From NCBI GenBank assembly GCA_963666735.1, contig OY762926.1, forward strand, positions 1,280,001-1,344,000: DNA of 64,000 nucleotides, in the 5' to 3' direction. The translations under genes and the position numbers were made by a program. A model generated the notes under the pieces. The model saw only the letters and a list, made by a program, of their open reading frames with translations, was not told the DNA's origin and did no database searches. How positions within the stretch are numbered: the first letter of the stretch is position 1; every line of letters starts with the position of its first letter. The stretch is from Gemmatimonadota bacterium. GTDB taxonomy: Bacteria > Gemmatimonadota > Gemmatimonadetes > Palauibacterales > Palauibacteraceae. Shown here piece by piece: positions 50,817 through 54,912 of the stretch.

Positions 50817-53800
50817 TCATGCGTCCTCTGATTCAAACATCAACCGCCTAAAGTCGGCCTCGATCATGCGCGCTGTCCACGTCGCACCGTCCGGCTTGAG
50901 GCTTTGTAGGTTCTGATCCCCGTTTACGTACACGACATCGCACGCTGCACCCGGCTCCGCATATCCCGCCTCCTCGAACCAGGCGTTGAGTACGGCGTTG
51001 TCCTCCTCTAGCCCCTCCGGGTCGTCTCCCCCGGGACGATTCCTCCAGATCAGCACTGCTTTGCTGCCGTCCGGCAGCACACCTTCCAAGCTTCGGAACT
51101 GCCACGGGCCACCTTCATCTACCGTCACTCCATCAACCACGCGCAGCCGTCCCTCCTCATCTCGCAGTACCACGGCCCGATAGCGTCGCGGTCCTCTGAC
51201 ACGCGCCACGGCGATCCCTGTCAGCCAATTAAACGTCTCAACCAGATCAACGTTTACCTCACGCGACTCATCGGATCCCGGAACCTTCACCCGCAGTCGA
51301 TAGGCGTCCGGTGTCCTGAAGTCCCCCAACCTCAACAGAGATTCCGCCTCGCCCGCCTCCACCTCGAGCATATAGCGCAGGCAGTACTCCTCTTGCCACG
51401 TTCCATCAGCGGCACCCTCTCTCGTTAGGGTTGTTGCGCCTTTCCCTCGCTCGGAGAACTCGATGTTGTTTAGTACGTCTTCGTAGGACTCTAGCCGGAC
51501 AACCTTCATGATTCTCGGCGATCGTTCCGCGGCGGTCCCCGTCGCCGGCCCGGACGGCGTCCCACCTTCCCATTCTGTCGAATAGGTAACCTTCTTGAGG
51601 CGCGGCAGGAGGATACTCTCGAAATGATGACCCATCTCAACCAGAACGAACCGGCGCGAGCCTCCGTCCTGCCGATTCTGGTTGATGACGGCATGTCCAG
51701 TCGTCCCGGAACCTGCGAAGTAATCTACGATTACTGACTGTCTGTCCGTAACAGCTTGGAGGGCGTCCATCACCGTATGGATCGACTTCGGATACAGATC
51801 TTCGGACAACTTCAGTCCGAGATCAGTGAGCAACCGAGTGCCGTGATCTCCCGCGATGTATTTTGCATCGGTCCAGACCGTCTTGATTGCGCTTTCCGCC
51901 TTTGCTTTATGGATTTGTATATTATCTGACGTGCCAGTCCGTTTCACGCGGAGAAGTGACAAGATGCTCGGCACAGATTTCCGAGAGTAGCGCCATTTTC
52001 GTTCAACTCCCTTGGCATCCACCGGATAAACTAGGATCACGTCATCCTCTTTGACGTTCGCCGCCGGAGGATGCCAATCATCCGGGCAAACATCGCCAAA
52101 ACCTACAATATCATCTCCCCTCACCTTTATCGGGTAAAAGCAGTTGCGAGCGGTCTGACGTTCGGATTCCCTTCCCCACTTGCGAAGATTGGCGTAGGTC
52201 CAATCAGCCTCTGGTATTGGTACGGCATTTAAGCGCGATACTGTAGTCGGCACACAGAAGTAAGCGTACTCGTGATTATAAGAGAATAAAGCGCCTTGGA
52301 TACCCTTCTTGTTGTGCATGACTACTGTGCAAATCTTGTTGTGGTCAGGGAATACACTCGACAGCAGTTGACCAAGTCTCTCCTGTTCATTTTCGTCGAT
52401 CGCTACGATATGACAGCCATCGTCGGCAGCCAGGCGCTTACTCAACGCCAAGCGGTTCTCGAGTAGCGCGAGCCAAGATGAATGTTTGTAGGTGTTCTTA
52501 TACGCGATCCGCGTAGTTTTGGAGTTGTAGGGCGGATCCAAATAAACGCATTTCACGCTATCGGCAAAGCGTGCTTGCAGCAGCGACAACGCTTGAAAGT
52601 TCTCGCTGTGGATTAACGTGCCATCGATCTGGCCGACGAGGTCGCCGACCGCTTCCAGTAGGCGGTGTCGAAAACTCTCCGCAAAGTGGCGAGTGTCCAC
52701 CATGAGCGTTGGGTGCTGTCGGAGGAACTCCGGCGTGAGGGGATCCGTGTAACCGGCCATCGCGAGATCTCCCTCGATGGCGTTGATGCCGCAGAGATCG
52801 ACCCACTCGGCGCGCTGGGCATCGTTTGTGGCGATCTCGGCGAGGAACTCGTCTGGAATGCAACCGACGCGGATGCACCAAGAGGTCTCCACGACGAATT
52901 TCTTCTTGAGCCAGAGCTTCTTCTGGAAGTCCTCGAGCTGCGCCAGAAACGTGATGATCTTGCTTGCTATTCGCCGTATGACCCTGAGCTTGGAGAGATA
53001 CTGCTCCACTCGGGGTGAACCCGCATGTTCGATGTCATCGAGATGCATCACCTCGTTCTTCAGGTAGAAGTCCAGCTCGCGGCGGAGAAACCCGCCGAGG
53101 TCCTTGTGGATGAAATAGTCGAACGTGTTCCGTGCCGTGTAGCGGTTGAGGTGAGCTCGCAGGCGTGAATAATCGGCGGCGCTGCCATCTGGCTTGACGT
53201 GCGGTTCCGAGAGAAGCACCGCCCATTTGGGGACGTCGGCTGCCGCGATGTTGAGGATGCGAGCCTCCGCGTCGTCGAGAAGAGGAGCCTGCTTCGGTGG
53301 CCTCTTCTTGCCGGAGCGCTGATCGGGGTGCCAATCGGCCACCGAAGAGGGGCGGTACTCGAACCGGATGACGACTTCGTCCCCATCGGGCCCGGCCTCC
53401 GTGTGGATGGGATCTTCCCTCGCCAGGATGAAATGGCGACGCTCGGCGGACTTGATGTTGCCGTGCTCTCCCTCGGTTGCGTCCGCCAGCCGAAAGTGGA
53501 CCCGCATCGGATTGCGCTCGTCATCGGGACGCAGCCGGAAGGAGTAATCTCGCAGGTACTCACTGGTCTTGATGTAATACTGGTCCGCGTTGGCCCAGTG
53601 AAGCTTGATTTCCTCGCCCTGGTAGGGAATGGCGTAGACGCCGTCCTTGTAGACGCGGTTGCTGAGGAAGTCGCCCTCACTGTAATAGCGCCGAAAGAAG
53701 CGGTAGATGTGGTCGTACACGTCCGCTTCTAGAGCGTCGAGATCTACGGCAGTCTCCTCAAGCTGTTCCTCCAGTTCCCGCACCTTGGGCACGTCGGGCA

Positions 53801-54515
53801 CGTCGGCTGGCGGGACCCCAAGGGCCGCCGCGCCTTCCTTCGCCTTAGCGAGTTGGAGTTGGATCCCGCGCCGATCCGATGACCGGTATGCGGAAAACGC
53901 CTCCCTCACCTGCGGAAGGAGATCGTGCTCAAGAAACTGGGTGACTTCGGCCGCCTTGGCGTGCATGATGCGGTAAAAGCCGAAGTCGAGGTCCGGCTTG
54001 TCGAGTTGAAACAACTCCTTCAGCAGCGTGACGAGCTTGTCGAAGCGATCTGTCGTCACGGACGGCACTAGGCTGGGGGCTTGAGCCGGATCGCTCGCAC
54101 TCGTGCTGACGGACGGTTTCTCGAACACGAGGGCCGGCTGCTCGGCAAGCTCGGAGTCCGATGGCTCGTGGGAAGGCTCCCCCAGGAAGAACCCCTCGTT
54201 CGGCAGCAGATCTTCCTCAGAAAGCGGGGTCTCCTGTTCCACGACCTGTACATCCTGGCCGAGATCAGGACAACTCTTCGCCAGATACCAAACCTCTTCC
54301 GCCGCTTCAAGTATCACGGATCGCAGGTCGATCTGCCCGTCACGGAACTCGCGCAAACGGCCTGCCGTCACCGAAACCACGAGGCAGCGCTCTTCGCCGG
54401 CGTCGGGCGACGGAACCGGCAGGCCAAGATAAGAACTGCCTGCAGTGTCGCGGGCCTCAAACAGCTGCGGGCCATCGTACTCGAACAGGGTCGAAACGTG
54501 GGTGATCGTAGTCAT
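50817..54515 (-). CDS. mod: Type III RM Mod subunit (beta-class N6-adenine MTase) with an extra N-terminal DUF6575-like domain
   Basis: FQLDKPDLDFGFYRI, DYFIHKDL, YLDPPYN, DYFAGSGTT, LESYEDVLNN; frame open from ATG 54515 (MTTITHVSTLFEYDGPQLFEARD); an alternative GTG at 54059 would give an unfused Mod. Confidence 0.9.
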   Translation of the reverse strand: MTTITHVSTLFEYDGPQLFEARDTAGSSYLGLPVPSPDAGEERCLVVSVTAGRLREFRDGQIDLRSVILEAAEEVWYLAKSCPDLGQDVQVVEQETPLSEEDLLPNEGFFLGEPSHEPSDSELAEQPALVFEKPSVSTSASDPAQAPSLVPSVTTDRFDKLVTLLKELFQLDKPDLDFGFYRIMHAKAAEVTQFLEHDLLPQVREAFSAYRSSDRRGIQLQLAKAKEGAAALGVPPADVPDVPKVRELEEQLEETAVDLDALEADVYDHIYRFFRRYYSEGDFLSNRVYKDGVYAIPYQGEEIKLHWANADQYYIKTSEYLRDYSFRLRPDDERNPMRVHFRLADATEGEHGNIKSAERRHFILAREDPIHTEAGPDGDEVVIRFEYRPSSVADWHPDQRSGKKRPPKQAPLLDDAEARILNIAAADVPKWAVLLSEPHVKPDGSAADYSRLRAHLNRYTARNTFDYFIHKDLGGFLRRELDFYLKNEVMHLDDIEHAGSPRVEQYLSKLRVIRRIASKIITFLAQLEDFQKKLWLKKKFVVETSWCIRVGCIPDEFLAEIATNDAQRAEWVDLCGINAIEGDLAMAGYTDPLTPEFLRQHPTLMVDTRHFAESFRHRLLEAVGDLVGQIDGTLIHSENFQALSLLQARFADSVKCVYLDPPYNSKTTRIAYKNTYKHSSWLALLENRLALSKRLAADDGCHIVAIDENEQERLGQLLSSVFPDHNKICTVVMHNKKGIQGALFSYNHEYAYFCVPTTVSRLNAVPIPEADWTYANLRKWGRESERQTARNCFYPIKVRGDDIVGFGDVCPDDWHPPAANVKEDDVILVYPVDAKGVERKWRYSRKSVPSILSLLRVKRTGTSDNIQIHKAKAESAIKTVWTDAKYIAGDHGTRLLTDLGLKLSEDLYPKSIHTVMDALQAVTDRQSVIVDYFAGSGTTGHAVINQNRQDGGSRRFVLVEMGHHFESILLPRLKKVTYSTEWEGGTPSGPATGTAAERSPRIMKVVRLESYEDVLNNIEFSERGKGATTLTREGAADGTWQEEYCLRYMLEVEAGEAESLLRLGDFRTPDAYRLRVKVPGSDESREVNVDLVETFNWLTGIAVARVRGPRRYRAVVLRDEEGRLRVVDGVTVDEGGPWQFRSLEGVLPDGSKAVLIWRNRPGGDDPEGLEEDNAVLNAWFEEAGYAEPGAACDVVYVNGDQNLQSLKPDGATWTARMIEADFRRLMFESEDA

Positions 54516-54525
54516 ACGGGCGGTC

Positions 54526-54912
54526 TCATGCGTCGCAGTGCGCGAAGATGTCGTAGTCGGCCAAAGGCCACCAAGTATGATGCGGCGGGCGTCCGATCTG
54601 CTGGAGGCGGCCCGCGCCTTCGCGGAGCAGAACGCGGCAAACCGACCGACCGCGAAGCGTCGGAAACCGCAGGGCCCTCTCGGCGTCGATTTGCTCCGCA
54701 AGCACGGATAGGCCGCGGACCCGATATTCCGATACGCCGCCAAATACTCGATCAGGGTGTTCGGCCCGCTGCGAGCGGAAATCACAGTCCGTGGGCGGCG
54801 GCGTGCGAACCAGCCTGAAGACGTATCGGCCGTGGACGATCTCCTCCGAGGTTGCTGGAGGGCAGTTCGGCGGTAGTGCCTCTCGATAGCTTGGGTGGCT
54901 GTCGCGCGCCAT
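54526..54912 (-). CDS. Small hypothetical protein, possible ADP-ribosyltransferase-like fold
   Basis: 128 aa, purine-rich RBS, LPPNCPP...YVFRLV...DFRS...RGLSV...HHTWW; stop 10 bp before the Mod-fusion ATG. Confidence 0.7.
   Translation of the reverse strand: MARDSHPSYREALPPNCPPATSEEIVHGRYVFRLVRTPPPTDCDFRSQRAEHPDRVFGGVSEYRVRGLSVLAEQIDAERALRFPTLRGRSVCRVLLREGAGRLQQIGRPPHHTWWPLADYDIFAHCDA

Follow-up and report, generated by a model that had tools for sequence, protein, structure and literature searches.

A PD-T4-10-family gene pair fused to a type III restriction methyltransferase: a possible guard module

Why should the methyltransferase of a type III restriction-modification (RM) system carry, at its N-terminus, one half of a toxin-antitoxin-like pair, and does that half guard the enzyme or simply travel with it? 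The locus that raises this question lies on the minus strand of the window, by which we mean the whole 64,000-nucleotide stretch of DNA analysed here. Its methyltransferase and helicase-nuclease motifs stand in mod-res order: the Mod body (50817..54059; residues 153-1232 of the fusion) retains intact copies of DPPY (660) and FAGSGTT (933) and matches the type III Mod model PDLC03646 over residues 157-1106 (E 2e-190), and the 1098-aa Res (47229..50525) matches PDLC03654 (E 1e-198) and contains Walker A/B and C-terminal nuclease-like motifs. Between them sits the relic of a DUF1828 gene (50522..50794; 90 aa, 51% identity over 41 aa to a gene of G013, a genome of the same genus). No promoter-like or terminator-like sites were found in 53900-55800, no simple repeats indicating phase variation in 47000-56000 and no tRNA within the window. 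Adjoining this RM operon is a putative effector gene, the small gene A (54526..54912).

The sequence-only reading of this DNA had described A as a 128-aa gene that stops 10 bp ahead of an ATG at 54515, from which a frame continues into Mod, and this holds: FRLV, GLSV and HHTWW are all present in the ORF of A (54912-54526), and the 1232-aa frame is open without a stop to 50817. Residues 1-112 of the fusion (54180..54515) form the DUF6575 domain which that reading had named, since the Pfam model matches residues 12-111 with 32.7 bits (cut-off 26.6) and the PD-T4-10_B model also matches (E 0.006). A Pro/Ser-rich linker follows (54060..54179, residues 113-152), identical at 31 of 41 positions to that of P0272, a second DUF6575-Mod protein. 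With no intervening stop between DUF6575 and Mod, any DUF6575 produced carries Mod. Nor is the fusion unique to this contig, because P0272 exists and the same pair is fused to DrmA and to DUF1156 methylases. Moreover, a contig from the run of another study (X7) covers 52400-54676 with 21 substitutions and 0 gaps, the 19 substitutions decoded being free of stops; since it keeps the frame and since a second fused Mod exists, the fusion is not an assembly error. In the second fused protein the catalytic half of Mod has been swapped, and the DUF6575 tag survived that swap. At least two Mod fusions were found, a lower bound because the same search overlooked some DrmA fusions.

Whether a fusion protein is really made depends on the start site. 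The Mod start placed near 54059 corresponds to a GTG at 54059 that, on alignment with the same-genus genome G035, falls on the start of its unfused Mod, and by this alignment it is the ancestral Mod start, kept in the fusion. One could argue that the frame is only shared and that Mod translation begins at this GTG, which is after all still present in the fused gene, the more so as the Shine-Dalgarno match of ATG 54515 is weak (-2.7 kcal/mol). The GTG, however, has a score of -1.7, compared with -6.4 where the unfused Mod of G035 starts, and the frame is conserved in P0272 and X7; to our minds, such a scenario is very improbable. A strong Shine-Dalgarno match is absent at both 54515 and 54059, and relatives use as their start the ATG that corresponds to 54515. 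The frame is open further upstream to 55259, an extension that overlaps A. At the junction (54512..54529), the 10-bp gap is accompanied by a 5-codon mini-ORF that shares bases with the stop of A as well as with the fusion ATG and that also occurs, on reading the sequence, in G013; it is a possible coupling relay between A and the fusion. On the reading favoured below, Mod would be made mostly with its DUF6575 tag.

Gene A matches no family in Pfam, NCBIfam or PHROGs, and its window copy does not match the PD-T4-10_A model at E 0.1. That model is, nonetheless, matched by 119 of the 120 A proteins aligned (best E 1.3e-9) and by P0003, which is 81% identical to window A (E 5e-4), so that the homology of the window gene to PD-T4-10 A is established via its relatives. 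Judged by homology, the pair is a member of the PD-T4-10 toxin-antitoxin family, a connection absent from the sequence-only reading. The suggestion of an ADP-ribosyltransferase (ART)-like fold fits the predicted structure (pLDDT 90.5), whose modelled core is an ART beta-sheet and whose best VIA match is KptA (Z 6.3, only a moderate score; rmsd 2.9 over 86 residues). ART-fold proteins dominate the VIA list, presumably making up at least 45 of the 50 matches listed, as we judge from their titles. Foldseek returned nothing for the A model at E 0.001. As for the R...S...H pattern thought reminiscent of such folds, conservation among 110 distant A members is at least 90% for R33 and for S69 and complete for H111 (mapped by secondary-structure order only), but the third position is a His rather than the acidic residue of R-S-E enzymes, and the last strand of A in these members is without a conserved acidic residue. 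A may be an NAD-using toxin that DUF6575 keeps in check. The window copy differs from its family at position 63, where 154 of 154 relatives share one residue, and at position 106 (153 of 154), and A of the source strain may be weakened or being lost.

The predicted DUF6575 structure (pLDDT 88.5) has no clear fold by VIA (best Z 4.5), nothing by Foldseek at E 0.001 and only chance-level matches in a profile search against solved structures. The Pfam DUF6575 model matched 3 of 401 genomes per search, and our surveys therefore used our own alignments. In these the pairing with a small gene, which the sequence-only reading had proposed, is present at 155 of 160 loci, and in most relatives the two ORFs overlap by 4 nt, as opposed to the 10-bp gap in the window. 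What follows DUF6575 is a 381-aa standard tail, DISARM DrmA, a DUF1156 methylase, type III Mod or nothing at all; in other words, the tails are interchangeable. Fusion of the pair to DrmA accounts for 41 of 98 matches, in genomes labelled as three phyla, and fusion to DUF1156 methylases was seen in four genomes, with two different DUF6575 subfamilies as tags. DUF6575 is further fused to an enolase-like protein, a GMC oxidoreductase and ORF6N, and the fusions to metabolic enzymes (the first two) imply that some grafts are accidental. A quick tree covered 92 of 147 rows, with standard-type rows subsampled to 40. A phage-encoded mimic of DUF6575 was considered and dropped, with one viral contig to its name and no phage record carrying the Pantoea protein. 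In mainly open-access text, where supplementary mentions may be missed, we found no prior publication on DUF6575 fusions to Mod, DrmA or DUF1156 methylases.

Which of the two partners, then, is the toxin? PD-T4-10 from E. coli ECOR65 is abortive and gives strong defence against T-even phages (Vassallo et al. 2022, PMC9519451). There, the DUF6575 protein B is toxic and A neutralises it, deletion being possible for B and not for A; the paper gives no predicted function for either (PMC9519451), and the literature that we found describes no mechanism. In a survey of 103 copies that started from DUF6575, none of the 66 copies beside an intact A has a broken domain, compared with 7 of the 37 whose A is itself broken or missing (Fisher p 5e-4, kin not being independent), and A is broken or not detected beside 30 of 96 intact DUF6575 copies. 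By eye, 9 of the 13 'broken A' calls in this survey are clear and 4 doubtful; one locus (L178) was counted as DUF-intact despite a frameshift, yet as it is without A its scoring leaves the pattern unaffected. In the set gathered from A, closed DUF6575 ORFs were never shorter than 115 aa, and a full standard B stands beside a broken A at three loci (L216, L248, L253). These decay patterns suggest a polarity opposite to that of E. coli PD-T4-10. The proposal that the small gene encodes the toxin is thus favoured by the counts in this lineage, whereas the E. coli experiment is opposite and stands; we regard A as a putative toxin and as probably the toxic partner. If the E. coli polarity applied here, DUF6575 or its carrier would be harmful and A its antitoxin, an ART-fold protein that acts by binding or modifying it and that, as a corollary, licenses or regulates the tagged Mod. 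For this speaks a direct experiment on the homologous system (PMC9519451), and a broken A could silence B via coupled translation. It sits badly, though, with the 30 of 96 and 0 of 66 just given and, more weakly, with our failure to find a catalytic fold in DUF6575 by VIA; in addition, the B tail of the enterobacterial plasmid homologue is of another kind, DUF7226-like, and could lie behind the toxicity there. On balance we think it unlikely. Losing A first could also reflect lost translational coupling, a point against the reading with A as the toxin.

Even with A as the toxin, the tag on Mod may be a passenger: a selfish A-DUF6575 pair in a defence island, kept by addiction independently of the state of Mod and decaying here, whose DUF6575 a deletion joined to the next gene and whose tag is tolerated. 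The fusions to the enolase-like protein, GMC oxidoreductase and ORF6N are what one would expect of this, as are unfused pairs upstream of drmA (L182) and of a DUF1156 gene (L262), the drifted A of the source strain, the broken A of G013 (where Mod is absent from the corresponding site) and a module present in just 2 of the 151 related genomes searched. Set against this, the tail matters: an intact A is seen in 30 of 33 standard pairs and in all 6 long defence fusions (2 of them originally found via A), but in 20 of 39 tail-less pairs, about half of which have thus lost A while the defence fusions lost none. The spread of the DrmA fusion over genomes labelled as three phyla and the tagging of DUF1156 methylases by two different subfamilies likewise speak against mere carriage, and we hold this explanation to be a real but minority prospect. 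In the fusions to defence enzymes, purifying selection continues to act on both A and DUF6575. For DrmA-lineage pairs with usable dS, dN/dS is 0.07-0.24 in A and 0.19-0.47 in DUF6575 (0.79 in one near-identical pair), and in DUF1156 fusions it is 0.14 and 0.17-0.27, respectively; the two Mod-fused copies differ away from conserved columns (DUF6575 p 0.006, A p 0.026). The A of the enolase-like fusion is also under selection (dN/dS 0.17), which, like the existence of the GMC oxidoreductase fusion, counts against a guard role.

We tentatively favour, at somewhat less than even chances, a guard module in which an ART toxin is restrained by the DUF6575 tag and the tail of the tag is an exchangeable sensor, here Mod. 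A two-part PD-T4-10-family toxin-antitoxin module would have been attached to a type III Mod, a passenger pair having become fused by deletion, probably via a DrmA-fused lineage. A phage protein that binds, distorts or removes Mod would free A, and freed A would abort the infection and back up restriction. The drifted or broken A copies in the source strain and G013, and the finding of only two Mod fusions, do not flatter this reading. The broader proposal, that DUF6575 is a portable antitoxin tag repeatedly grafted onto Mod, DrmA and DUF1156 methylases as bait that releases an ART toxin of a new class, we consider possible but doubtful; if true, the effector of PD-T4-10 would be its ART-fold 'antitoxin'. 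Should the tag be a guard, one deletion can give any defence enzyme a suicide back-up, and some DISARM, type III RM and Hma/DUF1156-type loci hide a second layer. With A assigned an ART fold and its partner reduced to a separable domain of 112 residues, the PD-T4-10 mechanism becomes testable with small constructs.

How does the pair compare with known systems? As in PD-T4-10, a DUF6575 protein comes after a small A, and by PADLOC models each of the two parts is homologous. A whole type III Mod, however, replaces the B tail (only positions 18-89 of the 353 in the B model are matched in the window), a 10-bp gap replaces the ORF overlap, and A is ART-like by predicted fold where the PD-T4-10 paper left functions unpredicted. 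Mod and Res, both long, in mod-res order and with their motifs intact, are those of a type III RM as modelled by PDLC03646 and PDLC03654, to which are added in the window a tag of 152 residues at the N-terminus of Mod and, upstream, an ART-like gene. CmdTAC (PD-T4-9) likewise has an ART toxin, connected to a phage sensor through the tail of its antitoxin, CmdT alone being non-toxic because it needs its partner for folding (PMC11618068). Unlike the window pair, CmdT belongs to the H-Y-E type of enzyme, and its partners are a helical CmdA and a SecB-like chaperone; CmdTAC/PD-T4-9 models matched none of the 120 and 110 family members, and no SecB was found among the neighbours scanned. Precedents for RM-held effectors are PrrC-EcoprrI, Ronin and EcoR22I (bioRxiv 2023.04.06.535777), with which our proposal has in common an arrest effector tied to an RM subunit and anti-restriction proteins as the proposed trigger. 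Their link is non-covalent or intrinsic, whereas here the effector is of another fold, its trigger putative, and Mod itself carries the fused partner as a separate domain.

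On the minus strand of the window, the 128-aa gene for the small protein A (54912-54526) ends 10 bp before an ATG (54515) that starts a stop-free frame of 1232 codons, as the sequence-only reading had described it, with the frame running open into a type III Mod. Its suggestion that the first domain resembles DUF6575 is borne out by a Pfam match over the cut-off (residues 12-111), and a Pro/Ser linker of 40 aa connects this tag to a Mod part matching the long Mod model PADLOC PDLC03646 (E 2e-190); a DUF1828 relic and then Res follow, and the motifs of both Mod and Res are intact. 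GTG 54059 corresponds to the start of the unfused Mod in G035, a genome of the same genus, where a Shine-Dalgarno match is found (-6.4 kcal/mol); in the window, GTG 54059 has none (-1.7 kcal/mol) and ATG 54515 a weak one (-2.7 kcal/mol). Upstream (54931-61570) lie NYN, STAND-like ATPase and AAA_14-DUF4143 genes, all three syntenic in G013 (same genus), and a DUF4268/NucS-like (PDC-S11) gene. The window also holds a CBASS-like operon (41379-43956, plus strand; cyclase, E2-like protein, patatin effector), within 44053-47189, an ISL3 transposase, a PLD-domain gene (plus strand) and, by eye, a second relic, from a Res C-terminus (45217-45909); the same genome carries a second Mod-like gene with 39% identity (G000:C1:1582626-1585103).

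Structure prediction for A gave high confidence (pLDDT 90.5), and ART-fold proteins dominate its structural matches, with KptA/Tpt1 first (Z 6.3 and 5.4), followed by Scabin (Z 5.2) and a toxin (Z 5.2) which we take to be RES-type. The Z scores are moderate but the match list is consistent, and it supports the ART-like fold inferred earlier from an R...S...H pattern. Distant family members conserve R33, S47, S69 and H111, but an acidic residue for catalysis is not apparent, so A does not look like a standard R-S-E enzyme. The DUF6575 model folds well and structural searches gave it no clear known fold.

Tagging of Mod is not confined to this contig. A look for further DUF6575-Mod fusions found P0272, whose tag is identical at 96/112 positions and whose catalytic half differs; against protein P0002, 424 of 458 residues are identical up to 611 with far more divergence beyond, pointing to a swap of the Mod catalytic and target-recognition half. 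The neighbour of P0272 is probably P0003 (81% identity to A), whose longest contig is of equal length. A contig from X7, a run from a different study, covers the junction with 21 substitutions and 0 gaps.

More broadly, the architecture is a repeated one, in which the partner domain of an ART-like small protein sits on core subunits of three restriction-like systems. Among 160 sampled loci (best 80 of 196 in genomes, best 80 of 103 in metagenomes), DUF6575 lies directly downstream of the A relative in 155, mostly with a 4-nt overlap, and four of the five others are, as far as visible, at contig ends. The standard second protein of ~381 aa occurs at 106 of these loci; elsewhere DUF6575 is fused to DrmA within drmMI-drmA-drmB-drmC operons, to an enolase-like protein or to ORF6N, or ends just past the domain. 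The 98 longer proteins from a search seeded on the window clade, which enriches for DrmA fusions, comprise 50 standard, 41 DrmA, 3 enolase-like, 2 Mod and 2 other. DUF1156 methylase fusions, found in four Dehalococcoidia-family genomes next to a DUF499-type ATPase and a PLD-SNF2 helicase, carry tags of two different subfamilies, and one genome with broken A has a GMC oxidoreductase fusion. Unfused A-DUF6575 pairs upstream of drmA (L182) suggest that fusion arose by deletion, and in a quick tree Mod-fused tags nest among DrmA-fused ones (SH-aLRT 91 and 86, neither reaching the starred level).

Other arrangements include four tandem pairs between a DUF499-type ATPase gene and a fused DUF1156 methylase (L254:5100-11700), tandem DUF6575 copies without A, like orphan immunity arrays (L260, L261), and, under purifying selection, DUF6575 joined to an enolase-like protein through an apparent DrmA N-terminal relic, seen by eye (L045, L049 (6366-8294)). 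P0155, possibly a deletion product, joins A minus its last strand and DUF6575 in a single 238-aa ORF, and upstream of an Arthrobacter plasmid DUF6575 gene (L172:3944-5164) tblastn detects no A.

Is the fusion functional? A and the tag show purifying selection where the tail is DrmA or a DUF1156 methylase, and also when the two Mod fusions are compared, and A is intact in 30/33 standard pairs and 6/6 long defence fusions (2 found via A) versus 20/39 tail-less pairs, which suggests that a tail makes the pair useful and that defence enzymes can act as tails. On the other side, conservation extends to the enolase-like fusion, G013 retains the tag without mod at the site, so that being fused cannot keep mod from being lost, and A of the window strain departs from the family state at 63, 106, 110 and 123. 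Since P0003 keeps that state at all four positions and X7 at 106 and 110, the drift looks recent and confined to this strain. On balance, a putative tethered toxin-antitoxin alarm is the likeliest reading, though a tentative one; a tolerated passenger fusion is nearly as likely.

A DUF6575-first survey of five genome families, picked because members occur there, gave 103 distinct copies: 66 with both genes intact, 13 with A broken, 17 with A undetected and 7 with DUF6575 broken, all 7 without A (Fisher p 5e-4, kin not being independent and families chosen for having members). Among loci found through A, every closed second ORF was at least 115 aa long. These counts point to loss of A first and of the tag later, the order we would expect for toxin, then antitoxin. 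As caveats, the second gene, being coupled, may fall silent once A is broken, and deletion of B, the second PD-T4-10 protein, which begins with DUF6575, is viable in E. coli. In the PD-T4-10 study (PMC9519451), B is toxic and neutralised by A, deletion of A was impossible, B deletion abolished defence and neither protein has a predicted function. For CmdT, the toxin alone is inert and needs its partner for folding (PMC11618068; correction PMC11445053); by analogy, this would account for a harmless lone A, not for a toxic lone B, which the different tail of enterobacterial B might explain. All in all, A is probably the toxin in this lineage.

As for known systems, 519 of 553 candidates are close relatives of A, and 1912 representatives pass a threshold of E 0.001; the window copy itself had no match in any library searched. 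PADLOC PD-T4-10_A is matched by 119/120 aligned A-family proteins and 91/110 distant ones, and the window tag weakly matches PD-T4-10_B; judged by these profiles, the A-DUF6575 pair derives from PD-T4-10. We found no earlier description, in the literature searched, of a PD-T4-10-type pair grafted onto restriction-like systems. Since the tail of B is replaced, the A-DUF6575-Mod architecture is not a full PD-T4-10 member.
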